NCBI RefSeq assembly: GCF_037042905.1 | Contig: NC_087250.1 | Location: 5,520,001 to 5,584,000 of the forward strand | DNA from: Lytechinus pictus | Taxonomy: Eukaryota | Length of the DNA stretch: 64,000 nucleotides | Direction of reading: 5' to 3' | Part shown: piece by piece, positions 41,257 to 61,200 of the stretch | Layout: every line of letters starts with the position of its first letter | Numbering within the stretch: the first letter of the stretch is position 1 | Notes under the pieces: model-generated | The model's database searches: none | What the model was told of the DNA's origin: nothing | Seen by the model: the letters and a program-made list of their open reading frames with translations, nothing else | Translations under genes and position numbers: made by a program

Positions 41257-41288
<32 letters not shown>

Positions 41289-41375
41289 AGATATGAAAAA
41301 AAAAGATTGAGGAAGAGGTCATAATACAGATCATAACAAACAGATTGTCTTTTTATCTAGCATTCATGGATTCTC

Positions 41376-41966: not shown

Positions 41967-41967
41967 C

Positions 41968-41980
41968 TGGCGACGAGGAT
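41968..41980 (+). promoter_or_regulatory. Primer-binding site, tRNA-Ser(GCU) type (also 50328-50340)
   Basis: TGGCGACGAGGAT 1 nt after the LTR; complementary to the ...ATCCTCGTCGCCA 3' end of metazoan tRNA-Ser(GCU) as recalled. Confidence 0.8.
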
Positions 41981-43413
41981 TAAAGCGATTTTTATTTTAT
42001 TTTCGGCAAAACATTTTCTTTACTTCGCCACAGCCAACGCCGTTGCAGAATCTGCGTTGGCCGTGGCCGAATATAAAAAAGCCGCCGCCATCTTGAAAAT
42101 TTTAGGCTTTTTATTAATTTGAGCTGTTTGACTCTGTTTCGTCCATAATATTAAATAAAACAAAAAGTAACATATTATTTTAGTTTGAGATTTCATTTTT
42201 TGGTGGGAAAAGTTTGATTTTTAGTTCCGTAAATATACTCTATTTTTTTACCGATCGGCACTGCCGTGCTGGCCTTGAAGGAATTCAGTGGCTAGCTCGA
42301 CAGGAGCTAATCGGATTTTTTTGGACAAAACATTATACGTTGTACTATTTAGGGTAAATATCCACTCATTTTGTTGACCATATATTTAAATCTTCCCTCG
42401 TTAGGATATATTTTTGTGGCCACGGAGTGTGATTGACTTTGATGAAATTTTGATTGCGTTTGACTGTGTTTACTGATGTGGTGTGAATGGATTGCTGAAT
42501 ATTATTGATGTTGTGAGTTGATTATTTTATTACAAGCCTGAATTTGCTTTTCTCCTTTGACCGCCGCGCTGCTGCTGCTGCTGCTGTTGTTAGTATTTTT
42601 TTTGTAATTATATTTCTGGGTGTTTTTTGGAGAAAACACCAGACATTTGCTGCTGCTGCTGCTGCTGCTGTTAATTGTTAGGAATTTATTATTTTTGGTC
42701 ACGCGTCTCAGGAGATAATGAAATTCAGTCTTGTATTAATTATTGTGTTGTTGCTGCTGCTGCTGTATTGAATATTTTGCTGCTGTTGCTCTGCTGTTGT
42801 ATTGTTGCTGCTGCTGCTGTATTGAATATTTTGTTGTTTATTGCTGCTGCCGTTGTGTAATTGAATTGTTGCTGCTGCTGTTGTATAATATATTTTGTTG
42901 CTGGTGCTGCCGTTGATGTGAGCTGTGCTGCTGACATTTGTATTAAATTCATATTCAATCAATTAATTATAAATTGTATAATTAAATAAATTTTGTATAT
43001 ATTTAGATAAATTGTACTTGTAAATATTAACTTTTGTTCAAAAAACAGAAAAAAAATAAATAAATAATAATAATTTATTTATTTGAAATTATTTCTATAT
43101 ATTTTTCATATCTTTCTTTGAACAAGTGAGCGTTCGATTGTTTGCATTTTTTCTTTTCTTTCCTAAGAATTAAATCATACAGGAATTTTATTTTTTAGGA
43201 AAGTAGCCTCTGGATTTTAATTTGATTACATTCTCAGGATATTGTGAGGTTAGTTCTGTTAATTCTCTTTCATTTTTTTTTCAAAAAGTTAATTTTGTCC
43301 CAGATTTATTTTGATTTTATCCGCAAGACAAAGTAGTCTGCAGGATAATTTTTGGCTAATTACAGTTCAATTTTGGAATTTAATTTTTGTTACTGATTAA
43401 TTTCTACATCAAG

Positions 43414-44877: not shown

Positions 44878-44905
44878 AGACATCATCAAGTGGGCAGATA
44901 GGCTT

Positions 44906-45754
44906 ATGACCCTTGCAGGTCAGGCCTTTGTAGGCCTTCCCGACAAGTTCGTTCAAGAACTTGTAGTGGCAAGGTTCTGCCAAGGTGCCCAAGACAAAGA
45001 TGCAGGGCATCATGTCCTGACTTCTCGGCCTGGGACCTTAGATGAAGCCATGACTAAGTACAAATGGTTTCAGTTTACCCAGAAGACCATGCACACGCAT
45101 GGCCCTAGGTCGAGAAAAGAGGTAAGGCAGCTCTCGATGGGAGATGGCGATAGTGACCTAAGGGTGCAAAAGTTGTCTCCCCCAGAGGCTGCCAAGAAGG
45201 GAAATTCTAGCCTTGAGGCTAGACTAAGTGCTCTGGAAGCCCAAAATGCAGTATGGGCATCCAAGATGGATTCGATGGTCGCTGCGATCACGGATCTATC
45301 TAGAAGCACAAAGGAACTCTTGTCGGTGTCGGGAGGCCGGTCGAGGTACCCCTCAGGCCGTGCCCCTGTTACACCTGACAGGCAGAAATACACCTCCGGC
45401 CGAGTTCCTGGTACCCCGGACAGACCAAAGTATACCTATGGTCGGGCTCCAGGTACGCCAGACAGGCCGAGGTTTAACTCAAATTTGACACCAGATCGGT
45501 CAGTAGGAGGCCGAAGGCCATTTTTTGGCCCTTCGCCAACTACAACTGATCGTCAGCGAAACTTCACAGGCTGTTTCAACTGTGGGGAAGAAGGCCATTT
45601 CAGCAGGGCCTGCCCCATGGGAAGATCGCCTGTGAACAGTAGACAAGTAAGGGCTGTAACCTTCGAGGAGGAGGGAAATGGACAGGGATCGGCGGAGATG
45701 GGGAGTCCCCGATCCGATCAGAGATCCCCTCCCCCGCCATCCCCATTCCATTAA
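44906..45754 (+). CDS. gag: Gag C-terminal part with CCHC zinc knuckle, copy 1
   Basis: WADRLMTLAGQAF...RFCQG capsid-like segment; CFNCGEEGHFSRAC. Confidence 0.85.
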   Translation: MTLAGQAFVGLPDKFVQELVVARFCQGAQDKDAGHHVLTSRPGTLDEAMTKYKWFQFTQKTMHTHGPRSRKEVRQLSMGDGDSDLRVQKLSPPEAAKKGNSSLEARLSALEAQNAVWASKMDSMVAAITDLSRSTKELLSVSGGRSRYPSGRAPVTPDRQKYTSGRVPGTPDRPKYTYGRAPGTPDRPRFNSNLTPDRSVGGRRPFFGPSPTTTDRQRNFTGCFNCGEEGHFSRACPMGRSPVNSRQVRAVTFEEEGNGQGSAEMGSPRSDQRSPPPPSPFH

Positions 45755-45765
45755 AGGGCAGCCTA

Positions 45766-48700
45766 ATGCCACAAGACCAAGGGAACCAACGGGCACCGGA
45801 CTCACAAGCAAGCCCAGGGAGCCCGAAATTCTCTAAGGTAACTGAGCACCCTTGGAGGAACCCGCCATGGCCACCAGACATTTCTGGTGATGTTAAAGAT
45901 CAAGAGGTTGAAGAAGTCATTTGTAGAATTGTGTCTACTTCAACATTGAGTGTTGAGTTGGCAGTTAGCAAGGAGCCCATTACATCCGTTTTGGACACTG
46001 CGGCAGCTGTCACCATTATATCTGATAGGCTTTTCCATCGCCTCCAGCCTCGGCCGCCGATCCTTAAGCGTGTAGTTCTTAAGGGGGCTGGCCGAGACAT
46101 GACAATGGACGGCATTGTGATAGGACCTATCACGCTCCAGCTGGGTAACCAAATACTCAACGAGGAGATTCACGTAGCTCCGATAGCAGATGAGATGTTG
46201 TTTGGCGTTGATCTATTAAGAAAACACAATGCCAATATTAGCATTCCAAATGCTATCCTAACTTTGAACGGTGAAAACCTACCAATAATCCAACGCGAAG
46301 ATTCGGGGAGTACGGCAGAGGTGTGTGTAGATAAGGGCGTCTGTGTTCCTCCGTGTTCGGTTCGAAGGGTTAAGTGTTCGGTGGCACTTAATTCTAGCCC
46401 ATTCTTGGTGGAACCTTTGCCTTTCCTACCCATACCTGTTCTTATACCCCGGAGCCTTCATGAAAGTAAGAAAGATACAGAAGTTTTCCTGATAAATTCC
46501 TCTGATATGACCTACAAGTTACGAAGGGGTGATATGATTGGGAAAGCTTATCAAGTCTCGGTGATAGAACCTGAAATAGAACCCTCAGAGGATGTCACAG
46601 TTAGGAGTATTAACACTGTAAAAGCTTCGGACTCAGACATACCTCCTCACCTTCTGGACCTTTGGGGCCGCTCTAATGAGGGGCTGGCCCCAGAGGAACA
46701 GGAGGAGTTGAGAGGGCTGCTACTAAAATATCAATCAGTGTTCGCAAAAGATGAGTTTGACCTTGGTGGTTTCAACGAGGTAACTCATAGCATAGACACG
46801 GGTGATGCGAGGCCCATAAAACAAAAGATGAGGCGGACCCCCCTGAATTTCATTCAGGAGGAGCAGGCACATCTCGACAAGATGCTCGCCGCTGGAGTTA
46901 TCCAGCCGTCTATGTCTGAATGGGCATCGCCCCCTGTGTTAGTGAGGAAAAAAGATGGAGGAGTCCGATGGTGCATTGATTACCGCAAGTTAAACAATGT
47001 CACCAAAAAGGACGTCTACCCCTTACCATGTATTGAAGAATGCCTTGATATTTTAGCAGGCAACAAGTGGTTTTCCAAACTTGATGCCAACGCAGCTTAT
47101 TGGCAAATCAAGGTAAATGAAGCAGATAGGGACAAAACAGCCTTCGTTACAAAACATGGGCTGTATGAGTTCGTCCGCATGGGATTTGGCCTGTGCAATG
47201 CACCGGCCACCTTCCAACGTGTGATGAACTTAGTCCTGAGAGGTCTCACATGGGACGTGGCTCTTGCATTCTTGGATGATATCCTGGTATTGGGTAAATT
47301 ATTTCCAGACCACATCAAGAATCTAGGGGCAGTCCTGAGGCGTTTCAAGGACTACAGACTCAAATTGAAACCCAAGAAGTGTGCCTTGTTTCAACGAAAG
47401 GTGGAGTTCTTGGGTAGGGAAGTGGATGCTACAGGCTTGCATCTACCAGAGGAAAACATCCAAAGGGTAGTGGATTGGCCTACTCCTGCTTCCACTAAAG
47501 AAGTAGAGCAGTTCTTAGGGTTGGCCAACTATCACAGGGTGTTTATGAAAGATTATGCACGGGTGGCTGGGCCATTGTATGAGCTTACAGGCAATCATGC
47601 TTTCAGTTGGACAGAGTTTCATCAGGAGGCATTCGAACAAATCAAAGCTATATTAACCTCAGCCCCTGTGCTCACACTTCCAAACGCACATGACCCGTTC
47701 ATCCTAGATACGGATGCGTCTAGCACAGCGATTGGAGCAGAGCTGCTACAGGTTCAAAATGGTGAGGAGAAGGTCATAGCTTATGGCAGCTTGTCTCTTT
47801 CTCCTCAACAAAGGAACTATTGTGTCACTCGCCGCGAGCTCTTAGCGTTGGTGTTATTTTGCAGACAGTATAGGCATTACCTTTTAGGTAGGCCATTTAC
47901 TGTCAGAACGGATCATGGCAGCCTAACATGGCTGCTCAACTTCAAAACGCCGACAGGACAGCTGTCTCGCTGGCTGGAGGAGTTAGGGCAGTACAATATG
48001 AAAATCGAACACCGGCCCGGTAGGCGCCACTCTAATGCAGATTCTCTTTCGCGCATTCCTGATACAGAATCAGTGTGTGAAGGGTATGAGCATGGTGTGC
48101 GACTACAGGATTTGCCGTGTGGTGGGTGTTCATATTGTACCAAGAGACACAAAGAATGGGCACACTTTGTCGACTGTGTCGATGATGTTGTGCCATTAAG
48201 TCAAAGCCAAAGGGTCTCGAATGTGGCTGTTGAAGAAACTTTCCCTGTCACGCACATGGAAATATTGTTCAACAAGGCCAACTCATTTGAGATCCGAAGT
48301 ATCTCAGTTGACCCAACTGAGGTGGCAGAGGAACCGCCTTCTGACAATTTAGTCAAGCAAGAGCAAGAAAAAGACCAGGTTCTCGTGCCCCTCCGTGAGT
48401 GGTTAACCAACAAGAAAGAACTGGATGAAGGGACTCTGTTTCTCCTCCCGCCAGAGGGAAAGTTCTTGTGGACGAACAGAGAACTCTTCTACTTCAAAGA
48501 AGGAGTTATCTGGATGAAGAAGGATGTAGGTGATGTTATAGTGATTCCAGAATCACTACGGCATGACATCATTCGGCTGAATCATGACCCTCCTTCAGCA
48601 GGGCATGCTGGAATCAATCGCACTCGGGCTAAGCTAAAGTCCAAGTATTATTGGTATCGCATGTCAGAAGATATTCGCATTTACATAGCCAGGTGTACAA

Positions 48701-49074
48701 CTTGCAATCAGAACAAGAAAGCGACCCGCCCTGGGAGGCATCCTATGAAAAGTTTTCATGCGAGCGCCCCCATGGAACGTGTCCATCTTGACTTCATGGG
48801 CCCACTACCAAAGACAACAAATGGTAATGAAAACATCCTGGTTATGGTAGATCAATTTACCAAATGGGTGGAATGCGTACCTTTGCCTTCCCAAACCGCA
48901 GAGATGACAGCTCATGCAGCAGTGAGCAGTTTTTTCTGCCGGTTTGGATATCCATTTCAAATCTTCACGGATCAGGGCAGAAATTTTGAGAGTACACTTT
49001 TCAAGGACATGTGCCGTGTCCTTGATATTCACAAGTCAAAAACGACCGCATTCCGCCCCCAAGCAAAAAGTTGA
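45766..49074 (+). CDS. pol: Pol (protease-RT-RNase H-integrase), copy 1; frameshift near 49065, truncated at 49295
   Basis: VLDTAAAVTII; WCIDYRKLN; FLDDIL; TDASSTAIGA/TRRELLA/RTDHGSL; HDPPSAGH..CTTC; HLDFMGP; TDQGRNF; Gypsy domain order. Confidence 0.95.
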   Translation: MPQDQGNQRAPDSQASPGSPKFSKVTEHPWRNPPWPPDISGDVKDQEVEEVICRIVSTSTLSVELAVSKEPITSVLDTAAAVTIISDRLFHRLQPRPPILKRVVLKGAGRDMTMDGIVIGPITLQLGNQILNEEIHVAPIADEMLFGVDLLRKHNANISIPNAILTLNGENLPIIQREDSGSTAEVCVDKGVCVPPCSVRRVKCSVALNSSPFLVEPLPFLPIPVLIPRSLHESKKDTEVFLINSSDMTYKLRRGDMIGKAYQVSVIEPEIEPSEDVTVRSINTVKASDSDIPPHLLDLWGRSNEGLAPEEQEELRGLLLKYQSVFAKDEFDLGGFNEVTHSIDTGDARPIKQKMRRTPLNFIQEEQAHLDKMLAAGVIQPSMSEWASPPVLVRKKDGGVRWCIDYRKLNNVTKKDVYPLPCIEECLDILAGNKWFSKLDANAAYWQIKVNEADRDKTAFVTKHGLYEFVRMGFGLCNAPATFQRVMNLVLRGLTWDVALAFLDDILVLGKLFPDHIKNLGAVLRRFKDYRLKLKPKKCALFQRKVEFLGREVDATGLHLPEENIQRVVDWPTPASTKEVEQFLGLANYHRVFMKDYARVAGPLYELTGNHAFSWTEFHQEAFEQIKAILTSAPVLTLPNAHDPFILDTDASSTAIGAELLQVQNGEEKVIAYGSLSLSPQQRNYCVTRRELLALVLFCRQYRHYLLGRPFTVRTDHGSLTWLLNFKTPTGQLSRWLEELGQYNMKIEHRPGRRHSNADSLSRIPDTESVCEGYEHGVRLQDLPCGGCSYCTKRHKEWAHFVDCVDDVVPLSQSQRVSNVAVEETFPVTHMEILFNKANSFEIRSISVDPTEVAEEPPSDNLVKQEQEKDQVLVPLREWLTNKKELDEGTLFLLPPEGKFLWTNRELFYFKEGVIWMKKDVGDVIVIPESLRHDIIRLNHDPPSAGHAGINRTRAKLKSKYYWYRMSEDIRIYIARCTTCNQNKKATRPGRHPMKSFHASAPMERVHLDFMGPLPKTTNGNENILVMVDQFTKWVECVPLPSQTAEMTAHAAVSSFFCRFGYPFQIFTDQGRNFESTLFKDMCRVLDIHKSKTTAFRPQAKS

Positions 49075-49616
49075 GAGGGCGAATAGGACCGTGATGGATG
49101 CAGTGCGATGCTACGTCTCAAAGTCACAAAGGGACTGGGACAGGCATCTCCAGCAGATCGCAGGTGCTATTCGCTCCTCTGTAAATCGTACAACTGGATT
49201 TACCCCTAACAAGCTAATGCTGGGTCGGGAGGTTAATCTACCCTCTGATCTCGTATGCTCTGTTCCTCAACCCGCTCAAGAGCAGACCAAAGAAGGATTT
49301 ATTACCACACTTAGACCAGGGTTAACTTAAACCTTGCTATCGGAATACGAAACTTAAACCTAGGTTTAAATATGGCAGTTTATTACCACACTTAGACTAG
49401 GGTTAAGTTAAACCACGCTATCAGAATACGGGCCAGAGAGTTTTGTATACTTATTTCGTTCTACTGAAACATTACAGATAGTCGCTGATTATTCTAATTC
49501 TATAATAATAATAAAAAGTCACATTGCATGGTGAGATAGAGAAATAATTGGAAAGAATGATGGACGAGGGAAAGAGAGAGAGAGAGATAAAGAAATGGAG
49601 GGTGAGATAGAAAAGG

Positions 49617-49648
<32 letters not shown>

Positions 49649-50065
49649 AGATATGAAAAAAAAAGATTGAGGAAGAGGTCATAATACAGATCATAACAAA
49701 CAGATTGTCTTTTTATCTAGCATTCATGGATTCTCTCACACAACCTCTAAGTCTTCTGGGACGGGTATGGAAACAGTTCTCGGCTGCATGCCGTCACTAA
49801 TGTACTGAGAGACACCCCCTCCTTTGCGATTAGTACGGCATTTTGAGAAATGTAAGAATCCATCCACATTGAAAGAGTTTGCTGTATACGCTGTGAACCA
49901 TGTCTCGGTAATGGCGCACACTTCCAGTTTGTTTATTTGGATAAAAGTTTCAAATTCGTCAAACTTGTTCGATAGAGACCTGATATTAGACATGAAAATA
50001 CGGGGGAAATCTTATTTTTCATGTTTCACCTCTTTCTCATTTGTCACATGTAAGGGTGAGATGGA

Positions 50066-50326
50066 TATAGTGTAAGGGGGTTATAGTTAAGCAGACGACA
50101 TCATGCACCCAAGTGACACAAGTCACATGACACATCGGCGGGAGGAACCACAACACAATACAGTACACACGCCACTAAAACACTCCACTCCATACTCAAC
50201 CCCCGAGAGGTACAGACGTCCTGAGAGCTGTGCATAACAAGAATAAGGTAAGGCTTTCTCCCGGTGTATATTGTGTGTAAGTTATAGTGAGTGTATGATT
50301 ATTTATGTTATCGGCCCCCCTCTTTA
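50066..50326 (+). repeat. 5' LTR of the full-length element
   Basis: Matches 41706-41966; followed by the PBS. Confidence 0.93.
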
Positions 50327-51773
50327 CTGGCGACGAGGATTAAAGCGATTTTTATTTTATTTTCGGCAAAACATTTTCTTTACTTCGCCACAGCCAACGC
50401 CGTTGCAGAATCTGCGTTGGCCGTGGCCGAATATAAAAAAGCCGCCGCCATCTTGAAAATTTTAGGCTTTTTATTAATTTGAGCTGTTTGACTCTGTTTC
50501 GTCCATAATATTAAATAAAACAAAAAGTAACATATTATTTTAGTTTGAGATTTCATTTTTTGGTGGGAAAAGTTTGATTTTTAGTTCCGTAAATATACTC
50601 TATTTTTTTACCGATCGGCACTGCCGTGCTGGCCTTGAAGGAATTCAGTGGCTAGCTCGACAGGAGCTAATCGGATTTTTTTGGACAAAACATTATACGT
50701 TGTACTATTTAGGGTAAATATCCACTCATTTTGTTGACCATATATTTAAATCTTCCCTCGTTAGGATATATTTTTGTGGCCACGGAGTGTGATTGACTTT
50801 GATGAAATTTTGATTGCGTTTGACTGTGTTTACTGATGTGGTGTGAATGGATTGCTGAATATTATTGATGTTGTGAGTTGATTATTTTATTACAAGCCTG
50901 AATTTGCTTTTCTCCTTTGACCGCCGCGCTGCTGCTGCTGCTGCTGTTGTTAGTATTTTTTTTGTAATTATATTTCTGGGTGTTTTTTGGAGAAAACACC
51001 AGACATTTGCTGCTGCTGCTGCTGCTGCTGTTAATTGTTAGGAATTTATTATTTTTGGTCACGCGTCTCAGGAGATAATGAAATTCAGTCTTGTATTAAT
51101 TATTGTGTTGTTGCTGCTGCTGCTGTATTGAATATTTTGCTGCTGTTGCTCTGCTGTTGTATTGTTGCTGCTGCTGCTGTATTGAATATTTTGTTGTTTA
51201 TTGCTGCTGCCGTTGTGTAATTGAATTGTTGCTGCTGCTGTTGTATAATATATTTTGTTGCTGGTGCTGCCGTTGATGTGAGCTGTGCTGCTGACATTTG
51301 TATTAAATTCATATTCAATCAATTAATTATAAATTGTATAATTAAATAAATTTTGTATATATTTAGATAAATTGTACTTGTAAATATTAACTTTTGTTCA
51401 AAAAACAGAAAAAAAATAAATAAATAATAATAATTTATTTATTTGAAATTATTTCTATATATTTTTCATATCTTTCTTTGAACAAGTGAGCGTTCGATTG
51501 TTTGCATTTTTTCTTTTCTTTCCTAAGAATTAAATCATACAGGAATTTTATTTTTTAGGAAAGTAGCCTCTGGATTTTAATTTGATTACATTCTCAGGAT
51601 ATTGTGAGGTTAGTTCTGTTAATTCTCTTTCATTTTTTTTTCAAAAAGTTAATTTTGTCCCAGATTTATTTTGATTTTATCCGCAAGACAAAGTAGTCTG
51701 CAGGATAATTTTTGGCTAATTACAGTTCAATTTTGGAATTTAATTTTTGTTACTGATTAATTTCTACATCAAG

Positions 51774-53237
51774 ATGGCGAGCAACATACCAAGAATCAAA
51801 ATCAACTTGTGTTCGTCTGAGGAATTGATGAGTCTGCCCGGAGTGGGTATGGCCACCGCCAACCGCATTCTACATGCGAGGGAGGCGGCCGACCTTACTC
51901 CGGATACATTCTTGTCGATACCTCATATACCGAAGGCGGAACTGTTAGTTTACGCCTTTGATTATGAGCCAACAACAACGGCTCATAATGTGGACCGCAG
52001 AGAAGTGCGCTCCGAAGGAGACGAGCCTTCTACGAGCGTTCCACTTATTCCGTCTAAGGAGCCCCCCGTAAGCCAGGCGTTTGAGGCTTGGCCACAGCAC
52101 ACCCATGCACATAGCGCACAGGGTGCTGTAGGCCAATCTTCTCAGACACAGGCCGGGGAGGCCCCCTCATTTTTCACAGGGGGGAGGCCAGGTGGCGCTT
52201 TTACTCAGCAGCCTTCGGCCTCTCCAGAAGATAGGGCTAAGTCCCTCTGGGCTAATCAATTTGGGTTTTCAGGATGGAACGATGGTCTGTTCCCACCACA
52301 GGGTCCCCACCAAGTTACCCCACCAGGACCCCAGTTCCAATGTGGTCCTCGTGCCCAGGTAGCTACCCCACCAGGACCCCAGTTCCAATTTGGTCCTCAT
52401 GCCCAAGTAGATTTGCATGGTCAGGCTCCCGGTACTCAGGGTGGCCGACCAGCAATGTTCAATCAAACAACCCAGACACCTCCACATAGCTATCCACAGG
52501 CCGTTCCACACTTTACACAAGCACAGTACGAGGAAATGTATGGCGTGATGTTTAGGATGATGCAGATGATGCCATTCGGAGGAACTGGACAGCCAGCTCC
52601 TCCATACTGCAACCCTGCTGCCGCCTACGGTGGGTATTGCCCACCATGGGCTGGAGGCAGATATCCGCCACACTATCCTAACACTGTGGCCCCGCAAACC
52701 TCTCCCCAAGGACCATGTGACTTGCAATATGGGGGTAGCAACCCTGTGTATCAAGGCGCTGGACCTCAAGGAGATGGACATGGAGGCCCAGTATACAGTG
52801 AACATAGAAACACCACAAGGCCATCAGTAAGCCCTGGATACAGGGGGCTGTCAACAAGAAATCAGCCGCCCCGCGTCACCAGACTTACTTCGGCCTCAAG
52901 ACCTGTGGTACCGGAGTATGACGACAGAAGGCCCCCTTCTAGACCAACCTCTTTGCCGAAGACTATTTCGTTCGACGGCAAAGGAAGTTGGGCGGCCTTC
53001 TATTCAAAGTTCCAACTATACACCGAAAGACACGGCATGTCTGATGCAGACAAGAAATATCAGCTGTGTCTGGCGTTGGAGGCCGAAGCTAGTAAGTTCA
53101 TGGCTCTCATTCAGGAGAGCAACCCAAATATCGCCTTCTCTGACTTGGTTACCAAGTTGGAGAAGCGGTTCGCTCTCCAGGATAAAGCCGGAAGTTACTC
53201 GGATGCAATTTCAATAGGCTTTTCAACGCTCGGATGA
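51774..53237 (+). CDS. gag: Gag N-terminal part (HhH domain), copy 2; frameshifted near 53185
   Basis: Same translation as copy 1. Confidence 0.8.
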   Translation: MASNIPRIKINLCSSEELMSLPGVGMATANRILHAREAADLTPDTFLSIPHIPKAELLVYAFDYEPTTTAHNVDRREVRSEGDEPSTSVPLIPSKEPPVSQAFEAWPQHTHAHSAQGAVGQSSQTQAGEAPSFFTGGRPGGAFTQQPSASPEDRAKSLWANQFGFSGWNDGLFPPQGPHQVTPPGPQFQCGPRAQVATPPGPQFQFGPHAQVDLHGQAPGTQGGRPAMFNQTTQTPPHSYPQAVPHFTQAQYEEMYGVMFRMMQMMPFGGTGQPAPPYCNPAAAYGGYCPPWAGGRYPPHYPNTVAPQTSPQGPCDLQYGGSNPVYQGAGPQGDGHGGPVYSEHRNTTRPSVSPGYRGLSTRNQPPRVTRLTSASRPVVPEYDDRRPPSRPTSLPKTISFDGKGSWAAFYSKFQLYTERHGMSDADKKYQLCLALEAEASKFMALIQESNPNIAFSDLVTKLEKRFALQDKAGSYSDAISIGFSTLG

Positions 53238-53265
53238 AGACATCATCAAGTGGGCAGATAGGCTT

Positions 53266-54114
53266 ATGACCCTTGCAGGTCAGGCCTTTGTAGGCCTTCC
53301 CGACAAGTTCGTTCAAGAACTTGTAGTGGCAAGGTTCTGCCAAGGTGCCCAAGACAAAGATGCAGGGCATCATGTCCTGACTTCTCGGCCTGGGACCTTA
53401 GATGAAGCCATGACTAAGTACAAATGGTTTCAGTTTACCCAGAAGACCATGCACACGCATGGCCCTAGGTCGAGAAAAGAGGTAAGGCAGCTCTCGATGG
53501 GAGATGGCGATAGTGACCTAAGGGTGCAAAAGTTGTCTCCCCCAGAGGCTGCCAAGAAGGGAAATTCTAGCCTTGAGGCTAGACTAAGTGCTCTGGAAGC
53601 CCAAAATGCAGTATGGGCATCCAAGATGGATTCGATGGTCGCTGCGATCACGGATCTATCTAGAAGCACAAAGGAACTCTTGTCGGTGTCGGGAGGCCGG
53701 TCGAGGTACCCCTCAGGCCGTGCCCCTGTTACACCTGACAGGCAGAAATACACCTCCGGCCGAGTTCCTGGTACCCCGGACAGACCAAAGTATACCTATG
53801 GTCGGGCTCCAGGTACGCCAGACAGGCCGAGGTTTAACTCAAATTTGACACCAGATCGGTCAGTAGGAGGCCGAAGGCCATTTTTTGGCCCTTCGCCAAC
53901 TACAACTGATCGTCAGCGAAACTTCACAGGCTGTTTCAACTGTGGGGAAGAAGGCCATTTCAGCAGGGCCTGCCCCATGGGAAGATCGCCTGTGAACAGT
54001 AGACAAGTAAGGGCTGTAACCTTCGAGGAGGAGGGAAATGGACAGGGATCGGCGGAGATGGGGAGTCCCCGATCCGATCAGAGATCCCCTCCCCCGCCAT
54101 CCCCATTCCATTAA
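53266..54114 (+). CDS. gag: Gag C-terminal part with CCHC knuckle, copy 2
   Basis: CFNCGEEGHFSRAC. Confidence 0.85.
   Translation: MTLAGQAFVGLPDKFVQELVVARFCQGAQDKDAGHHVLTSRPGTLDEAMTKYKWFQFTQKTMHTHGPRSRKEVRQLSMGDGDSDLRVQKLSPPEAAKKGNSSLEARLSALEAQNAVWASKMDSMVAAITDLSRSTKELLSVSGGRSRYPSGRAPVTPDRQKYTSGRVPGTPDRPKYTYGRAPGTPDRPRFNSNLTPDRSVGGRRPFFGPSPTTTDRQRNFTGCFNCGEEGHFSRACPMGRSPVNSRQVRAVTFEEEGNGQGSAEMGSPRSDQRSPPPPSPFH
54033..54106 (+). promoter_or_regulatory. Predicted -1 ribosomal frameshift signal (also 45673-45746)
   Basis: G GGA AAT heptamer in the gag frame; pol frame is -1 and open from 54003; 7-bp stem GGATCGG/CCGATCC starts 6 nt downstream. Confidence 0.65.
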
Positions 54115-54125
54115 AGGGCAGCCTA

Positions 54126-57100
54126 ATGCCACAAGACCAAGGGAACCAACGGGCACCGGACTCACAAGCAAGCCCAGGGAGCCCGAAATTCTCTAAGGTA
54201 ACTGAGCACCCTTGGAGGAACCCGCCATGGCCACCAGACATTTCTGGTGATGTTAAAGATCAAGAGGTTGAAGAAGTCATTTGTAGAATTGTGTCTACTT
54301 CAACATTGAGTGTTGAGTTGGCAGTTAGCAAGGAGCCCATTACATCCGTTTTGGACACTGCGGCAGCTGTCACCATTATATCTGATAGGCTTTTCCATCG
54401 CCTCCAGCCTCGGCCGCCGATCCTTAAGCGTGTAGTTCTTAAGGGGGCTGGCCGAGACATGACAATGGACGGCATTGTGATAGGACCTATCACGCTCCAG
54501 CTGGGTAACCAAATACTCAACGAGGAGATTCACGTAGCTCCGATAGCAGATGAGATGTTGTTTGGCGTTGATCTATTAAGAAAACACAATGCCAATATTA
54601 GCATTCCAAATGCTATCCTAACTTTGAACGGTGAAAACCTACCAATAATCCAACGCGAAGATTCGGGGAGTACGGCAGAGGTGTGTGTAGATAAGGGCGT
54701 CTGTGTTCCTCCGTGTTCAGTTCGAAGGGTTAAGTGTTCGGTGGCACTTAATTCTAGCCCATTCTTGGTGGAACCTTTGCCTTTCCTACCCATACCTGTT
54801 CTTATACCCCGGAGCCTTCATGAAAGTAAGAAAGATACAGAAGTTTTCCTGATAAATTCCTCTGATATGACCTACAAGTTACGAAGGGGTGATATGATTG
54901 GGAAAGCTTATCAAGTCTCGGTGATAGAACCTGAAATAGAACCCTCAGAGGATGTCACAGTTAGGAGTATTAACACTGTAAAAGCTTCGGACTCAGACAT
55001 ACCTCCTCACCTTCTGGACCTTTGGGGCCGCTCTAATGAGGGGCTGGCCCCAGAGGAACAGGAGGAGTTGAGAGGGCTGCTACTAAAATATCAATCAGTG
55101 TTCGCAAAAGATGAGTTTGACCTTGGTGGTTTCAACGAGGTAACTCATAGCATAGACACGGGTGATGCGAGGCCCATAAAACAAAAGATGAGGCGGACCC
55201 CCCTGAATTTCATTCAGGAGGAGCAGGCACATCTCGACAAGATGCTCGCCGCTGGAGTTATCCAGCCGTCTATGTCTGAATGGGCATCGCCCCCTGTGTT
55301 AGTGAGGAAAAAAGATGGAGGAGTCCGATGGTGCATTGATTACCGCAAGTTAAACAATGTCACCAAAAAGGACGTCTACCCCTTACCATGTATTGAAGAA
55401 TGCCTTGATATTTTAGCAGGCAACAAGTGGTTTTCCAAACTTGATGCCAACGCAGCTTATTGGCAAATCAAGGTAAATGAAGCAGATAGGGACAAAACAG
55501 CCTTCGTTACAAAACATGGGCTGTATGAGTTCGTCCGCATGGGATTTGGCCTGTGCAATGCACCGGCCACCTTCCAACGTGTGATGAACTTAGTCCTGAG
55601 AGGTCTCACATGGGACGTGGCTCTTGCATTCTTGGATGATATCCTGGTATTGGGTAAATTATTTCCAGACCACATCAAGAATCTAGGGGCAGTCCTGAGG
55701 CGTTTCAAGGACTACAGACTCAAATTGAAACCCAAGAAGTGTGCCTTGTTTCAACGAAAGGTGGAGTTCTTGGGTAGGGAAGTGGATGCTACAGGCTTGC
55801 ATCTACCAGAGGAAAACATCCAAAGGGTAGTGGATTGGCCTACTCCTGCTTCCACTAAAGAAGTAGAGCAGTTCTTAGGGTTGGCCAACTATCACAGGGT
55901 GTTTATGAAAGATTATGCACGGGTGGCTGGGCCATTGTATGAGCTTACAGGCAATCATGCTTTCAGTTGGACAGAGTTTCATCAGGAGGCATTCGAACAA
56001 ATCAAAGCTATATTAACCTCAGCCCCTGTGCTCACACTTCCAAACGCACATGACCCGTTCATCCTAGATACGGATGCGTCTAGCACAGCGATTGGAGCAG
56101 AGCTGCTACAGGTTCAAAATGGTGAGGAGAAGGTCATAGCTTATGGCAGCTTGTCTCTTTCTCCTCAACAAAGGAACTATTGTGTCACTCGCCGCGAGCT
56201 CTTAGCGTTGGTGTTATTTTGCAGACAGTATAGGCATTACCTTTTAGGTAGGCCATTTACTGTCAGAACGGATCATGGCAGCCTAACATGGCTGCTCAAC
56301 TTCAAAACGCCGACAGGACAGCTGTCTCGCTGGCTGGAGGAGTTAGGGCAGTACAATATGAAAATCGAACACCGGCCCGGTAGGCGCCACTCTAATGCAG
56401 ATTCTCTTTCGCGCATTCCTGATACAGAATCAGTGTGTGAAGGGTATGAGCATGGTGTGCGACTACAGGATTTGCCGTGTGGTGGGTGTTCATATTGTAC
56501 CAAGAGACACAAAGAATGGGCACACTTTGTCGACTGTGTCGATGATGTTGTGCCATTAAGTCAAAGCCAAAGGGTCTCGAATGTGGCTGTTGAAGAAACT
56601 TTCCCTGTCACGCACATGGAAATATTGTTCAACAAGGCCAACTCATTTGAGATCCGAAGTATCTCAGTTGACCCAACTGAGGTGGCAGAGGAACCGCCTT
56701 CTGACAATTTAGTCAAGCAAGAGCAAGAAAAAGACCAGGTTCTCGTGCCCCTCCGTGAGTGGTTAACCAACAAGAAAGAACTGGATGAAGGGACTCTGTT
56801 TCTCCTCCCGCCAGAGGGAAAGTTCTTGTGGACGAACAGAGAACTCTTCTACTTCAAAGAAGGAGTTATCTGGATGAAGAAGGATGTAGGTGATGTTATA
56901 GTGATTCCAGAATCACTACGGCATGACATCATTCGGCTGAATCATGACCCTCCTTCAGCAGGGCATGCTGGAATCAATCGCACTCGGGCTAAGCTAAAGT
57001 CCAAGTATTATTGGTATCGCATGTCAGAAGATATTCGCATTTACATAGCCAGGTGTACAACTTGCAATCAGAACAAGAAAGCGACCCGCCCTGGGAGGCA

Positions 57101-57434
57101 TCCTATGAAAAGTTTTCATGCGAGCGCCCCCATGGAACGTGTCCATCTTGACTTCATGGGCCCACTACCAAAGACAACAAATGGTAATGAAAACATCCTG
57201 GTTATGGTAGATCAATTTACCAAATGGGTGGAATGCGTACCTTTGCCTTCCCAAACCGCAGAGATGACAGCTCATGCAGCAGTGAGCAGTTTTTTCTGCC
57301 GGTTTGGATATCCATTTCAAATCTTCACGGATCAGGGCAGAAATTTTGAGAGTACACTTTTCAAGGACATGTGCCGTGTCCTTGATATTCACAAGTCAAA
57401 AACGACCGCATTCCGCCCCCAAGCAAAAAGTTGA
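54126..57434 (+). CDS. pol: Pol (PR-RT-RNase H-integrase N-terminus and core), copy 2
   Basis: Same motifs as copy 1. Confidence 0.95.
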   Translation: MPQDQGNQRAPDSQASPGSPKFSKVTEHPWRNPPWPPDISGDVKDQEVEEVICRIVSTSTLSVELAVSKEPITSVLDTAAAVTIISDRLFHRLQPRPPILKRVVLKGAGRDMTMDGIVIGPITLQLGNQILNEEIHVAPIADEMLFGVDLLRKHNANISIPNAILTLNGENLPIIQREDSGSTAEVCVDKGVCVPPCSVRRVKCSVALNSSPFLVEPLPFLPIPVLIPRSLHESKKDTEVFLINSSDMTYKLRRGDMIGKAYQVSVIEPEIEPSEDVTVRSINTVKASDSDIPPHLLDLWGRSNEGLAPEEQEELRGLLLKYQSVFAKDEFDLGGFNEVTHSIDTGDARPIKQKMRRTPLNFIQEEQAHLDKMLAAGVIQPSMSEWASPPVLVRKKDGGVRWCIDYRKLNNVTKKDVYPLPCIEECLDILAGNKWFSKLDANAAYWQIKVNEADRDKTAFVTKHGLYEFVRMGFGLCNAPATFQRVMNLVLRGLTWDVALAFLDDILVLGKLFPDHIKNLGAVLRRFKDYRLKLKPKKCALFQRKVEFLGREVDATGLHLPEENIQRVVDWPTPASTKEVEQFLGLANYHRVFMKDYARVAGPLYELTGNHAFSWTEFHQEAFEQIKAILTSAPVLTLPNAHDPFILDTDASSTAIGAELLQVQNGEEKVIAYGSLSLSPQQRNYCVTRRELLALVLFCRQYRHYLLGRPFTVRTDHGSLTWLLNFKTPTGQLSRWLEELGQYNMKIEHRPGRRHSNADSLSRIPDTESVCEGYEHGVRLQDLPCGGCSYCTKRHKEWAHFVDCVDDVVPLSQSQRVSNVAVEETFPVTHMEILFNKANSFEIRSISVDPTEVAEEPPSDNLVKQEQEKDQVLVPLREWLTNKKELDEGTLFLLPPEGKFLWTNRELFYFKEGVIWMKKDVGDVIVIPESLRHDIIRLNHDPPSAGHAGINRTRAKLKSKYYWYRMSEDIRIYIARCTTCNQNKKATRPGRHPMKSFHASAPMERVHLDFMGPLPKTTNGNENILVMVDQFTKWVECVPLPSQTAEMTAHAAVSSFFCRFGYPFQIFTDQGRNFESTLFKDMCRVLDIHKSKTTAFRPQAKS

Positions 57435-58155
57435 GAGGGCGAATAGGACCGTGATGGATGCAGTGCGATGCTACGTCTCAAAGTCACAAAGGGACTGGGA
57501 CAGGCATCTCCAGCAGATCGCAGGTGCTATTCGCTCCTCTGTAAATCGTACAACTGGATTTACCCCTAACAAGCTAATGCTGGGTCGGGAGGTTAATCTA
57601 CCCTCTGATCTCGTATTCTCTGTTCCTCAACCCGCTCAAGAGCAGACCAAAGAAGAATATGTGGCCGAGTTGACTTGTGCAATGCGTAATGCTCATATTT
57701 CAGCTAGGGCTGCAATCAAATCTGCTCAGCGCAAGATGAAACGAGACTACGATATCAAACAATACACTCGGGAATTCGAGGTAAATGATCGTGTCTACAT
57801 TAGAGACACGGCCTGTGCCAAGGGGAAATCTCGTAAGTTAAACCCCCCTTGGAAAGGGCCGGCGATCATCGTAGAGAAGAGGTCCCCATATCTTTACAGA
57901 GTGGCCTTCAGAAAAACAATAGCCACTTACAATCACGACCGCTTGAAAAAGTGTACGGATCAGAGTAAGGCGGTTATTGAGACTCCTGGCAAAGACAAAC
58001 TATATTGTTTTTGCCGGAAGGCTGATGATGGCTCTCTGATGATATGTTGCGACGAATGCAATGAATGGTACCACGGAGCGTGCGTTGGTATCACAGAGAC
58101 GGAAGGATTAGAAAACGTGAAATGGTTTTGCCCCCCCTGTACTAAGAGGAGGTAG
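57427..58155 (+). CDS. pol: Integrase C-terminal part after the frameshift: catalytic Glu, GPY/F-like motif, PHD finger
   Basis: KVERANRT; PPWKGPAII; LYCFCRKADDGSLMICCDECNEWYHGACVGI...WFCPPC (C4HC3). Confidence 0.9.
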   Translation, partial: KVERANRTVMDAVRCYVSKSQRDWDRHLQQIAGAIRSSVNRTTGFTPNKLMLGREVNLPSDLVFSVPQPAQEQTKEEYVAELTCAMRNAHISARAAIKSAQRKMKRDYDIKQYTREFEVNDRVYIRDTACAKGKSRKLNPPWKGPAIIVEKRSPYLYRVAFRKTIATYNHDRLKKCTDQSKAVIETPGKDKLYCFCRKADDGSLMICCDECNEWYHGACVGITETEGLENVKWFCPPCTKRR

Positions 58156-58198
58156 AATATTTAGAAACAAATGTGTCGTCTATTATTATGCATGTACT

Positions 58199-59587
58199 AT
58201 GATAAGTCGTCTAATAACCACGTTTATATTTCTTTTCCTTCCCCAAATTCTCTCCCCCTCCCCCCATTTGTGCATCATTCTTCTCTTCCCATACAGAGAG
58301 AAAAAGGAGAGAGAGGAAATCCTGCTACCACCGGGGGTGGAGTTAAACGACATAGAGGTAGACGTTGGTTCGGCCCCAGAGGAGGCCCTTCCTGAGCCCC
58401 CCTCTGAAGCCGAACCAACAAAAATTGAATGTATGCAGCAGGCCTCGGAGACCCGTTCCGAAAATCCGCCTCCTGCACCAGCAGGGGCAGATGCTCGGAA
58501 GAAAGAGTTCTCTGAGGCCGAGCTTGCTAAAAAAAAACGTGAGCTTAATAGGCGTAGAAAAGAACGGGCCAAGCGTGCCAAAAAGACAAAAAAGCTGGCG
58601 CAAGACCCGCTTCCGGGAACAAATGCCGGTCCCTCGACCAGTGGAGGCCTTACGGTTGGGGTTGGTCGTGGCCGTGGACTACTGTCCACTTGGCCTAGAC
58701 CACCCCATCCAGTGGAGTGTTCCTCCATTGGAAGAGGGCGGGGAATCACCCCAAAAATGTTAGAGGAAGCTTTGGAGGAGAGCCCACGGCCACTGCGTGC
58801 ATTCGATGCACACTTTCATCCCGATCGCATAAAAATAAGAAAAGGAAAAACTGAACTTCAGGGACAGCCTCTACACCCGGTCGAGGTAGTCGGAGGGGTA
58901 TGGAACTTCTGTGATCCAGTAAGATACTCCGCCCCCGGCTTCCTCGACAGGGTATTCGAGGAACTCCCTGAAGGCTACGCAGTGGCGGTGGGCATCCACC
59001 CGAAGCAGGCCTATGGCCTGAAGCGTTACTATCTTGAGGCGCTGCGATCGGCTCTCGCCGACCCGAGAGTCAGAGGCCTGTCGGAGTTGGGCCTCGATTG
59101 GTCCACGGATGACTCCGAGTGGGGGGCACAGGAGCAGCTTTTTGAGCAGCTCCTAGGGCTCTCCACCGGAAGAGTCCTGGTACTCCATCTCCGGGGGGCC
59201 AATGGCTCTCGTCCCGGCAATGAGCCGATCCCTCGTGCTGTGCACAAGCTGGCGCGCGACGCGATTCGCCGACGGTGTCCGGCCGCTCAGCGCATCCATT
59301 TGCACTGTTTCATGGGTTCGCCGGACATCGTCGACGAATGGACGTCAGCGTTCCGTTATGCGTACTTTGGTGTCACGGGCAGTGCCTCTTACTACAATGG
59401 AGCGAATGCCAAGCTTAAGAGGCTTGGCATTCGGTCCATTCCAGGAAATCGTCTCCTGATCGAGACAGACGCCCCCTACCTGCCCGTCCGCCCTCGCCAC
59501 GGCTGGCAAACAGAAGCCTTTATCGGCGATGTCGGGCAGGTGGTGGCGTCTATCCGAGGGGTTCCTCTACCAGAGTTACTCGATTAA
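58199..59587 (+). CDS. tatD: ORF3: TatD-family metal-dependent nuclease preceded by an acidic/Pro-rich segment and a basic NLS-like segment; true start uncertain
   Basis: FDAHFHPD, VGIHP, LSELGLD, LVLHLR, IHLHCFMG, FGVTG and LLIETDAPYL occur in TatD order (family-level call). Confidence 0.9.
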   Translation: MISRLITTFIFLFLPQILSPSPHLCIILLFPYREKKEREEILLPPGVELNDIEVDVGSAPEEALPEPPSEAEPTKIECMQQASETRSENPPPAPAGADARKKEFSEAELAKKKRELNRRRKERAKRAKKTKKLAQDPLPGTNAGPSTSGGLTVGVGRGRGLLSTWPRPPHPVECSSIGRGRGITPKMLEEALEESPRPLRAFDAHFHPDRIKIRKGKTELQGQPLHPVEVVGGVWNFCDPVRYSAPGFLDRVFEELPEGYAVAVGIHPKQAYGLKRYYLEALRSALADPRVRGLSELGLDWSTDDSEWGAQEQLFEQLLGLSTGRVLVLHLRGANGSRPGNEPIPRAVHKLARDAIRRRCPAAQRIHLHCFMGSPDIVDEWTSAFRYAYFGVTGSASYYNGANAKLKRLGIRSIPGNRLLIETDAPYLPVRPRHGWQTEAFIGDVGQVVASIRGVPLPELLD

Positions 59588-60331
59588 CGCCAGGGAGCTG
59601 TATTGCCTCAAATAAAGGGGCAATGCTGCTCCCTTGCACCTGTCTCTGCCTTTTACCTTAATTGTAAGGCTATTTTATATACAAAAGTTGTATTTTATAT
59701 GTGTTTATTATGCTTTATATATGTCATACAGAAAATGGACGCCTATGAGTTACAATTCTTATTATATATACTAGTTATGCTTTTTGTTGAAATTGGAAAA
59801 TCAGATAAGCAACAATATTTTATATATATATGTATGTATTCATTGATTTAAAAATTTGTTTATTTTTACTTAGGTACATAGCAGTGAGCTTATTTAATTT
59901 ATGTCAAGGCAGAGACAAGGTAAGAATATTTTTTACAATTGGTAATGATGTACAATGTATATATTTATGTATTTGTGTTATATTTATGTTTATGAACATA
60001 AAGAAAAGAAAATGATCACAAAAAAAGAAAATAAAAAGATCACAGAAGAAGATGAAGAAAAAAAAAGAAGGACAAAAAGATCAAAGATAAAGAAAAGAAA
60101 AAGATTACAAAAGAAGAAAATAAATATTACAGAAAGAAAAAAGAGATCAAAGAATACAAGAAAAAAGAAAGAAAAGATATGCTTGAGAAAAAAAAAAAAA
60201 AATAAATGAAAAATAAATGTATGTTGATGTATATTTTATGTTAGGTTAAGTTGAGTTATACCTTACGTTAAGAATGTTAAATATATTAAGTTATGTTAAG
60301 TTGTATTGGAAATAGGCCCCCCAATTTTTTT

Positions 60332-60345
60332 AGGGTGGGGGGGAG
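60332..60345 (+). promoter_or_regulatory. Polypurine tract
   Basis: AGGGTGGGGGGGAG immediately before the 3' LTR. Confidence 0.85.
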
Positions 60346-60606
60346 TATAGTGTAAGGGGGTTATAGTTAAGCAGACGACATCATGCACCCAAGCGACACA
60401 AGTCACATGACACATCGGCGGGAGGAACCACAACACAATACAGTACACACGCCACTAAAACACTCCACTCCATACTCAACCCCAGAGAGGTACAGACGTC
60501 CTGAGAGCTGTGCATAACAAGAATAAGGTAAGGCTTTCTCCCGGTGTATATTGTGTGTAAGTTATAGTGAGTGTATGATTATTTATGTTATCGGCCCCCC
60601 TCTTTA
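60346..60606 (+). repeat. 3' LTR
   Basis: 261 bp; differs from the 5' LTR at aagTgacaca/aagCgacaca and cccCgagagg/cccAgagagg. Confidence 0.93.
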
Positions 60607-61200
60607 TGGATATCAAGTTCGATCGATCAATAGATGATCTATTTTGGGAGAGATCTCTTAGTCCATCGTTTCGATAATTTACGCGAACGGGTATTTTCGC
60701 AGTTTACGAGAGCCCCCTCTGCATCCTCGAGTTCTTGTAATCCCGTACTGATTAGCAACCAAATTCGTTTGTGACGGCAACGGCACCTTTTGTTTGTTAC
60801 GTAACCTATAAAGGTCATTCCCTGAGTACGTGAGGCGCCGAGGTAAGTCTATTGTCCGTTGCTCGATTAGAGTGGTCATTTTATCATCAATGACCAAACG
60901 ATCTTCTTCCAAGTTCAAAGCCGTTTGAGAAGATAATACTCTTCGGTTTAACACACTGCAAACAGGTATACGTGGTAACAACACAAATGAAAAGCATCCA
61001 GAGTTTCATGAAACTTGAAAATACAACAACAGCCATAGTTCAATATTGCACAAAAGTCAGTTCATAATTATCACAGATTCACATGCAACGAGACTTACTA
61101 GTACTTGAAAGAATCACTTTTCTTAGTCGTCTACGAAAGAAGAGAAATTTCAGCAACACAAATTGCTCTCTGCGCTAGGGAAACAGCGCCCTCAGTTTGT
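60607..61200 (-). mobile_element. 5' portion of the LINE split by the Gypsy element (outer end approximate)
   Basis: RTRGCRGG basic motif; the empty-site join reads ...DRSNLISISPLH...(one stop)...DFPRIFMSNIRS in one frame. Confidence 0.55.

Follow-up and report, generated by a model that had tools for sequence, protein, structure and literature searches.

The window analysed here is a stretch of 64,000 nucleotides of Lytechinus pictus (NCBI RefSeq assembly GCF_037042905.1, contig NC_087250.1, positions 5,520,001 to 5,584,000), and all coordinates below are numbered from its first letter. Positions 50066-60606 of the forward strand (+) form a single Ty3/Gypsy long terminal repeat (LTR) retrotransposon with gag, pol and a third open reading frame (ORF3). 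It is likely that this element is a coding-defective copy of a Ty3/Gypsy lineage marked by an FLDD motif in the reverse transcriptase (RT) and a PHD finger on the integrase, that this lineage also carries a helix-hairpin-helix (HhH) domain on Gag and a TatD nuclease gene as ORF3, that these modules were gained stepwise, and that they act in the way proposed below. The element is bounded by a 5' LTR (50066-50326, +) and a 3' LTR (60346-60606, +) of 261 bp each, which differ at positions 50114 and 50204. The limits of LTR identity, 5'-TATAG...CTTTA-3', show that the ends are not TG/CA (TA..TA). A target-site duplication TGGA flanks both sides (left copy, 50062-50065; right copy, 60607-60610; +), with a 5-bp TGGAT as alternative reading if the LTR boundary is shifted by one base. 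A primer-binding-site-like sequence, TGGCGACGAGG (50328-50338, +), begins 1 nt past the 5' LTR; its primer may be tRNA-Ser, and no tRNA genes were found within the 64-kb window. A polypurine tract, AGGGTGGGGGGGAG (60332-60345, +), directly adjoins the 3' LTR, and an A-rich low-complexity tract (59995-60210, +) lies between ORF3 and this polypurine tract. The leader from LTR to gag start (50327-51773) is unusually long (1447 nt) and contains six upstream ATGs and CTG/TTG-rich imperfect repeats (51103-51260). The G+C content of the element is approximately 48%, compared with approximately 35% for the host background.

The assignment to Ty3/Gypsy is based on the paired LTRs, the target-site duplication, the primer-binding-site-like and polypurine tracts, and the order of the domains retrieved with Pfam, namely zf-CCHC, Asp protease, RVT_1, RT_RNaseH, Integrase_H2C2, and rve. 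Pfam gave no chromo match of the kind expected for a chromovirus, a PHD finger being present at the integrase C-terminus, and no env family match of the kind expected for an errantivirus-like element, ORF3 being TatD_DNase. The L. pictus proteins P0001 and P0077 are 99% identical to ORFs of the window. An earlier, sequence-only reading of this DNA had described one element with two LTR differences in 261 bp, non-TG/CA LTR ends, an FLDD RT motif, and three added modules (HhH on Gag, PHD on integrase, and TatD). This description was confirmed by the LTR comparison, by the FLDD codons at 55629-55640, and by Pfam matches for all three modules, of which the HhH match was marginal.

The pol gene (54003-57434, +) is in the -1 frame relative to the second part of gag, and the gag/pol overlap contains a candidate -1 frameshift heptamer, GGGAAAT (54033-54039, +). 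On the same strand, pol encodes a protease (~54315-54581), an RT (55302-55778), an RNase H (55968-56354), an integrase zinc domain (56904-57080), and an integrase core (57123-57416), of which the frame breaks at ~57427. The C-terminal part of the integrase (57286-58155, +) follows in the +1 frame and terminates in a PHD finger (58003-58140, +; PF00628) and a stop codon. This finger at the end of the integrase frame was recognized by Pfam with an E-value of 1.2e-11 and 44.9 bits, against a cut-off of 24, and its Cys4-His-Cys3 zinc ligands are invariant in 35 Pol proteins. The closest solved PHD fingers are those of Pps, DIDO1, CFP1, TAF3, BPTF, PHF2/8, and ING4, all of which are readers of histone H3 trimethylated at lysine 4 (H3K4me3). 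Furthermore, the cage tryptophan is kept (W of NEWYHG, two residues before the zinc-binding histidine) and aligns with that of the solved PHD fingers. These resemblances point to a PHD finger of the H3K4me3-reader subtype. PF00628 is listed for 96 of the 120 best Pol relatives, and TatD is listed in the same protein for none of these 120. One Pol protein of the PHD clade from a metagenome (P0097) lists a Tpt1/KptA RNA 2'-phosphotransferase domain (PF01885), which may be another accessory enzyme in the FLDD/PHD lineage.

In this copy, gag is divided over two frames. Gag part 1 (51774-53237, +) starts at the ATG at 51774 with a ComEA-like HhH domain (51783-51959, +; Gag residues 4-62), followed by a long Pro/Gln-rich stretch. 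Gag part 2 (53218-54114, +) is in the +1 frame and contains a CCHC zinc knuckle (53929-53976). Over Gag residues 4-38, the Pfam matches were marginal both for HHH_3 (PF12836; 27.3 bits, cut-off 27) and for HHH (PF00633; 25.6 bits, cut-off 24). Among the relatives, PF12836 scored above its cut-off in L114 (34.6 bits) and just below it in L087 (26.6 bits) and L111 (25.7 bits). An AlphaFold model of the Gag tip, built on an 11-sequence alignment, displayed four short helices with a predicted local distance difference test score above 90 over approximately residues 11-60. The two best fold matches of this model in the PDB, as found by Foldseek, are ComEA proteins (8dss, root-mean-square deviation of 1.8 Å over 62 columns and 32% identity; 2duy, 31% identity). 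In addition, a family HhH profile made from seven seed sequences retrieved five further Gag N-termini (E 1.5e-13 to 1.7e-9). The modelled fold of the Gag tip is that of a ComEA-like HhH domain, i.e. an HHH_3-type double helix-hairpin-helix. When 1.84 billion representatives were searched with a profile of the Gag-HhH alignment, 34685 matches were returned; among the 150 listed, each matched in 3-16 stretches, and these 150 were read as repeat HhH proteins that are uninformative on the spread of HhH-Gag.

ORF3 (58297-59587, +) occupies the third frame (ORF 58121-59587), its tail being frame-shifted at ~59580. A basic stretch resembling a nuclear localization signal (NLS) and an RGG stretch precede the TatD domain (58802-59578, +), which matched TatD_DNase (PF01026) with an E-value of 5.9e-27 and 95.1 bits, against a cut-off of 27. 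All six metal-ligand motifs are present in the window ORF3 (HFH, ELGLD, LHLRG, HLHCF, and ETDAP), and the six metal-ligand positions are invariant in 26 family sequences. Compared with solved structures, in a set without TATDN2, the TatD family profile matched YcfH (1e-33) best, followed by human TATDN3 (1e-14) and TATDN1 (~3e-11). By these comparisons, the element encodes a TatD of the YcfH/YabD type, which is a predicted metal-dependent nuclease. Relatives of this type act on RNA, RNA:DNA hybrids, and DNA ends. RNA and R-loops are reported as substrates of human TATDN2 (PMC10711561). The role in DNA-end processing ascribed to TatD by the earlier reading would be only one of several options.

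Homologues of ORF3 were found both as annotated proteins and on contigs. A protein of L. variegatus is 83% identical over the TatD region and 73% over the whole of ORF3. The TatD relatives comprised 69 proteins of near lengths and seven longer ones, most of them 500-900 residues long with TatD at the C-terminus; no Pol-TatD fusion occurred among these 69 and seven proteins. Protein P0008 runs from a partial (half) PHD finger into TatD. In the ESM Atlas, the window ORF3 matched generic eukaryotic TatD clusters only, and the long ORF3 N-terminal region of L087 had no usable match. The long ORF3s (L087, L088, L098, L101, L107, L138, L104, and others) have a C2H2-like motif in common (CPxxGC...H....H), as well as a conserved block before the TatD domain without Pfam or Atlas match. 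The Lytechinus ORF3 is devoid of the C2H2-like motif and has the basic/RGG stretch in that place. Viral contigs, scanned by means of the TatD alignment, yielded six weak matches (25-31% identity). A similar scan of genome contigs gave one useful match, L001, and 79 others of 23-37% identity, which were taken as ordinary bacterial tatD genes from their titles and low identity.

Three frame breaks are present in the window copy, namely in gag (~53185-53237), in the integrase core (~57427), and in the ORF3 tail (~59580). Since relatives such as L087 have a single gag ORF, the junction between gag part 1 and part 2 represents a frame break. Similarly, the reading frame of P0077, a paralogue from L. 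pictus, is continuous across the integrase break, and P0001 and P0002 extend 13 residues beyond the window ORF3 stop; a different frame of the window encodes these residues. Relative to the window, the contigs assembled from run X1 have indels of 1, 5, and 11 nt, located precisely at the three breaks, the 1-nt indel being that at ~53185 in gag. The insertion is young by LTR divergence yet coding-defective, and versions without the breaks exist in the species. Because of the three frame breaks, the window copy cannot be autonomous.

Co-occurrence of the modules was scored in a context set that consisted of L001, an animal-derived contig in a bacterial metagenome-assembled genome (MAG), and 79 contigs from metagenomes that were retrieved by means of an alignment of Pol. 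Use was made of tblastn, of Pfam searches on 219 ORFs of 46 contigs, and of own HhH and TatD profiles. A PHD finger was borne by 14 contigs (L001, L087-L090, L098-L101, L104, L107, L109, L110, and L138). In 12 of them, the PHD finger was followed by TatD in the same orientation, the other two being cut by the contig end: all that L099 contained in this place was an ORF with homology to ORF3 N-termini (E 3e-32), truncated at the contig border, and L110 stops 465 nt past the PHD finger. The HhH domain occurred in all seven PHD-bearing contigs that hold the start of Gag (E 7e-30 to 1.7e-9), and five of these seven Gag starts lay outside the profile seed. All three modules were found together on six contigs (L087, L089, L090, L101, L107, and L138). 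Exact terminal overlaps of 99 nt (L101:1-99 = 11727-11825; L089:1-99 = 8937-9035) identify L101 and L089 as circular assemblies of the repeat unit, consisting of one LTR and the internal part. Because both hold TatD, TatD belongs to the repeat unit.

L001 and the proteins P0014, P0121, P0124, and P0192 are animal retrotransposon sequences filed in bacterial MAGs (Sedimenticola and Candidatus Thiodiazotropha). Such contigs probably represent host DNA that ended up in the bins of symbionts. An NXPE-like fragment and a piece of a mariner-type transposase are also present on L001.

A pol tree was constructed with FastTree from 804 columns covering RT, RNase H, and integrase, with the PHD columns excluded, for 90 rows in which broken frames were bridged with X. 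All 26 rows with a PHD finger fell within one clade of 33 rows, with a support of 100. Six of its seven rows without a PHD call were cut before the C-terminus; the seventh is a Lingula protein of 1576 residues. FLDD was found in all 25 rows of this PHD clade that cover the motif and in none of 55 others, which have YLDD, YIDD, or YVDD. The next branch is L093, of which the integrase ends in PF22938 and ORF3 encodes a GDSL lipase. This GDSL/SGNH lipase ORF (L093:3514-4680; PF13472, E 2.1e-09) is located where others have TatD. L093 is followed by a sister clade of ten rows (support 95) without PHD. In this sister clade, TatD was found in L091, L092, L111, and L112, truncated homologues of the ORF3 N-terminus in L094 and L095, and HhH in L105, L111, and L114. 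L111 thus combines HhH and TatD with an integrase without PHD, and the integrases of L091, L092, and L112 end in PF22938. The 46 remaining Gypsy rows of the pol tree displayed none of the three modules.

These results describe, as far as sequences can tell, a lineage that occurs in echinoderms, bivalves, and many marine contigs and that is defined by FLDD and the integrase PHD finger. The distinct Gypsy lineage postulated by the sequence-only reading was thereby recovered as one fully supported clade with an exclusive RT motif, and the joint occurrence of the modules among relatives was substantiated by the contig scores given above. No assessable contig within the PHD clade lacked TatD or HhH; the sister clade lacks the PHD finger. 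The term coordinated toolkit fared less well. Co-conservation of the modules held, but their coordination remains a hypothesis, given the different depths of the modules in the pol tree and the GDSL ORF3 of L093.

The modules were seemingly assembled stepwise, because TatD and HhH, but no PHD, occur in the sister clade and L093 has a GDSL ORF3. This raises the question whether the three modules are merely independent additions, made at different times and for different purposes, with ORF3 as an exchangeable cassette and no coordinated toolkit at all. Such a scenario is a serious contender that falls somewhat short of being probable. It accounts for the restriction of PHD and FLDD to the 33-row clade, for the lipase on the nearest non-PHD branch, and for the Tpt1/KptA domain of P0097, and it has a precedent in the exchangeable enzymatic ORF3s of rotifer LTR elements, as reported in PMC5408684. 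On the other hand, all assessable contigs of the PHD clade have TatD (12/12) and HhH (7/7), and the TatD tree mirrors the pol split, which points to long joint inheritance under selection. The modules are traits of the lineage and not the outcome of a one-off capture, and the trees are consistent with TatD and pol having descended together for a long time, PHD and FLDD being acquired afterwards.

The TatD tree (105 rows) gave a similar picture. The TatDs of the PHD-clade elements formed one clade (support 97), the sister-clade TatDs formed their own group, and bacterial TatDs stood apart, which mirrors the split in the pol tree. This tree is compatible with a single origin of the element TatD but does not prove it (support 62). 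The clade with support 97 also includes nearly all annotated echinoderm and bivalve proteins called 'YabD-like', 'YcfH-like', or 'TATDN2', and P0044 is identical to the TatD of L107. Thirteen such echinoderm/bivalve annotations are located in the element TatD clade (P0001, P0002, P0007, P0015-P0017, P0025, P0026, P0029, P0030, P0039, P0053, and P0061) under the names YabD-like, YcfH-like, HI_0454-like, or TATDN2. As these proteins nest among element-borne copies, the annotated TatD-family genes are probably retrotransposon ORF3s instead of host genes.

The converse, that TatD is a host gene captured by one copy, or part of a nested insertion, and that the 'YabD-like' genes are ordinary host genes, is highly improbable. 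It would agree with the NCBI annotation, in which P0001 and P0002 are metal-dependent hydrolase genes standing on their own, and with the lack of Pol-TatD fusions among the TatD relatives. However, TatD lies inside the LTR pair, it recurs in the same place and on the same strand in 12 of the 14 PHD-bearing contigs and in four sister-clade contigs, it is contained in two circularly assembled units, and the annotated invertebrate proteins nest among the element TatDs, with the identity of P0044 and the L107 TatD as the extreme case. A one-off capture of TatD was rejected, as it is contradicted by the conserved position in relatives and by the TatD tree.

Regarding the expression of ORF3, a splice-donor-like sequence, AAG|GTAAGG (50245-50253, +; exon end at 50247), is present inside the LTR, and a splice-acceptor-like sequence (58222-58296, +), in which a pyrimidine tract of 70 nt is combined with CAG at 58296, is located just upstream of ORF3. 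Pyrimidine tracts followed by AG also directly precede the ORF3 start codon in L138, L104, L111, and L101. The ORF3 protein of the relatives often begins with MDS, as does P0002 of L. variegatus; in the window ORF3, the acceptor is followed by a first in-frame ATG at 58433. When the relatives were searched for the LTR donor motif with a fuzzy pattern, which was too permissive, only L101 gave a close look-alike (position 31), which may be due to chance. In run X1, which is only guessed to be RNA, one contig end abuts 58295 with 27 LTR-variant-like letters that stop just before the donor, and the word depth over ORF3 (100-133) is 7-10 times that over most of pol (11-15). Three to eight reads in each of three RNA runs match only a 36-nt stretch at the acceptor (58269-58304); these reads extend on both sides into unrelated sequence, indicating that another transcribed locus has this stretch.

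The junction between LTR-like letters and 58295 could also stem from a DNA deletion derivative (LTR-ORF3-LTR without gag-pol), with no RNA splicing involved. This explanation, which is rather unlikely, takes advantage of the guessed nature of X1, since extra DNA copies would equally give a 7- to 10-fold ORF3 depth, and of the annotation of P0001 and P0002 as separate genes. However, the breakpoints match a consensus donor (AAG|GTAAGG) and an acceptor made of a pyrimidine tract and CAG, and the acceptor-like sites of relatives directly precede the ORF3 start. Moreover, reverse transcription of a spliced RNA yields the same DNA, so that both explanations are not mutually exclusive; if X1 is DNA, the junction marks a copy without gag-pol, which perhaps arose from a reverse-transcribed spliced RNA.

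The preferred reading, with splicing, leads to the following mechanism. Gag-pol would be read from full-length RNA with a -1 frameshift, and ORF3 would be translated from a spliced subgenomic RNA that joins the LTR donor (50247/50248) to the acceptor (58296/58297), as is the case for retroviral env. Much like the chromodomain of chromoviruses, the PHD finger would anchor the integration complex on nucleosomes with H3K4me3. The HhH domain of Gag may bind double-stranded DNA without sequence preference, be it cDNA or chromosomes. TatD may trim intermediates or by-products of reverse transcription that consist of RNA, single-stranded DNA, or RNA:DNA hybrids; alternatively, it may clear by-products that would alert the host. 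In this order of events, HhH and TatD would have been gained first, and PHD and FLDD later. The DNA-binding, histone-reading, and nuclease roles are inferred from the domain families concerned.

A more specific version of the alternative role is that the ORF3 TatD is a counter-defence factor that removes cytosolic cDNA by-products or RNA:DNA hybrids by which innate sensing is triggered, or that degrades small silencing RNAs. ORF3 being a separate protein outside Pol with an NLS-like basic stretch would suit this role, as would its position as possibly the most abundant transcript, if X1 is RNA. However, the zinc-finger-like N-domain of the long ORF3 forms fits nucleic-acid targeting under either model, and counter-defence is considered unlikely.

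Several observations weigh against the preferred reading as a whole. As to the copy itself, it is non-autonomous through its three frame breaks, and its ORF3 lacks an ATG at the place where the relatives start (MDS...), the first ATG being 136 nt past the acceptor. As to the HhH domain, the Pfam score of the window copy is at the threshold (27.3 versus 27), the Foldseek E-values of the ComEA matches are weak (0.07 and 0.49), although ranked first, HhH was not found with the family profile in the 995-residue gag ORF of L092, and L112 reached an E-value of 0.004 only. As to splicing, the evidence consists of one 27-letter contig end in run X1, of which the RNA nature was guessed, and no splice joint was found in the 34, 10, and 59 reads of three RNA runs (~6% of each run); expression of the element is low in the samples of these three runs. 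As to the comparative part, the contigs came from few collections and do not form an unbiased sample, both trees were made with FastTree only, and the modules are not strictly linked, as the sister clade and L093 demonstrate.

Part of the element occurs twice in the window. Positions 40934-49293 and 49294-57653 form a tandem duplication in perfect register of 8360 bp with two mismatches (99.98%), which begins 772 bp upstream of the 5' LTR and finishes inside the integrase. The first unit (40934-49293, +) contains the 772-bp flank, an LTR copy (41706-41966), and the 5' part of the element up to the integrase. The upstream 'copy' (41706-49295) was considered as a second insertion and rejected, as flank and 5' part of the element are duplicated together. 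Due to this 8360-bp tandem duplication, the third LTR copy and the upstream gag-pol are a duplicate and no second insertion; this may be a genuine segmental duplication or an effect of the assembly. AT-rich satellite arrays (10844-11307, 13860-14354, 39816-40703, and 33461-34268) occupy much of the surrounding host DNA, with units of 31 bp in two blocks and units of 320-324 bp. Positions 1-40000 of the window are devoid of long ORFs.

Among known systems, SURL/Mag-type elements are Ty3/Gypsy elements of echinoids. In chromoviruses, such as MAGGY and Tf1, the Ty3/Gypsy integrase ends in a chromodomain, which tethers these elements to chromatin methylated at lysine 9 of histone H3 (H3K9). The present element likewise carries a histone-mark reader at the C-terminus of a Gypsy integrase as a presumed integration tether. 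It differs from the chromoviruses by a reader that is a PHD finger of the DIDO1/TAF3/BPTF type, and by its HhH-Gag and TatD ORF3. Because of this type of PHD finger, the expected mark is H3K4me3, typical of active chromatin, and not methylated H3K9. An H3K4me3-type PHD finger on a Gypsy integrase predicts insertion at active chromatin, the opposite of what is seen for chromoviruses. PHD fingers in mobile elements are known from CR1, Rehavkus, Chlamys, and Chlamydomonas elements, as stated in PMC8557442. The family Ginger1-9_HM has a Gypsy-type integrase with a PHD finger at its C-terminal end, as well as an Ulp1 protease, according to PMC2836005. The PHD finger on a Gypsy-type integrase is the common feature; Ginger1, of which the transposases are related to Gypsy integrases and have extra C-terminal domains, is a cut-and-paste DNA transposon without RT, Gag, or TatD.

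The ORF3 has its closest analogue in the Vesta/Juno LTR elements of bdelloid rotifers, of which the enzymatic ORF3 encodes a DEDDy exonuclease or a GDSL esterase (PMC5408684). In both cases, pol is followed by an additional ORF for a hydrolase or nuclease of which the catalytic residues are intact; the types of ORF3 are modular and vary from one related family to another, and the likeness extends to L093, which has a GDSL ORF3 too. The present element differs in that its nuclease is a TatD TIM-barrel metal hydrolase, not a DEDDy exonuclease, and in that its lineage has echinoderms and molluscs as hosts; TatD is not mentioned in PMC5408684. In Cer1 (CERV) and in retroviruses, an accessory protein is produced from spliced RNA and gag-pol from unspliced RNA, as described in PMC10309623. 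Compared with those systems, splicing of the present element is inferred from site motifs and one contig end, and the product is a nuclease instead of an export factor or envelope. Bacterial YcfH/YabD (1yix and 2gzx) and human TATDN2 (PMC10711561) belong to the same Pfam family as ORF3, and the six metal-ligand motifs are all in common. Long forms of ORF3 also have the layout of cellular TatDs, i.e. a long N-terminal region and a C-terminal TatD, but ORF3 sits inside an LTR retrotransposon and its N-terminal region has a zinc-finger-like motif of no known family. Similarly, the Gag tip has the same HHH_3-type double helix-hairpin-helix as the DNA-binding domain of ComEA (8dss and 2duy); unlike in ComEA, the domain forms the N-terminal tip of Gag and is followed by a PNMA/Ty3-like capsid and a CCHC knuckle.

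In the literature, Repbase and subscription journals excluded, no report of TatD in an LTR element was found, nor of a PHD finger on a Gypsy integrase or an HhH domain on Gag. The lineage adds a putative DNA-binding Gag tip and a TatD nuclease gene to the repertoire of LTR elements, in which accessory enzymes and chromatin readers show how insertion sites are chosen and how nucleic-acid intermediates are handled. In practical terms, TatD-family 'host genes' of sea urchins and bivalves are probably transposon genes. Taken to its furthest consequence, the comparison suggests, tentatively and as a possibility more than a probability, a marine Gypsy lineage with a spliced TatD gene, PHD-aimed integration at H3K4me3, and a ComEA-type Gag clamp, of which the ORF3s account for most or all echinoderm and bivalve 'YabD-like/TATDN2-like' genes and encode a nuclease that acts on reverse-transcription intermediates or hides them from host sensing. 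If true, the action of TatD on such intermediates, or their concealment, would be a retroelement-encoded function without described counterpart, next to an integrase reader that resembles the chromodomain of chromoviruses in its place and differs from it in the chromatin it is expected to select.

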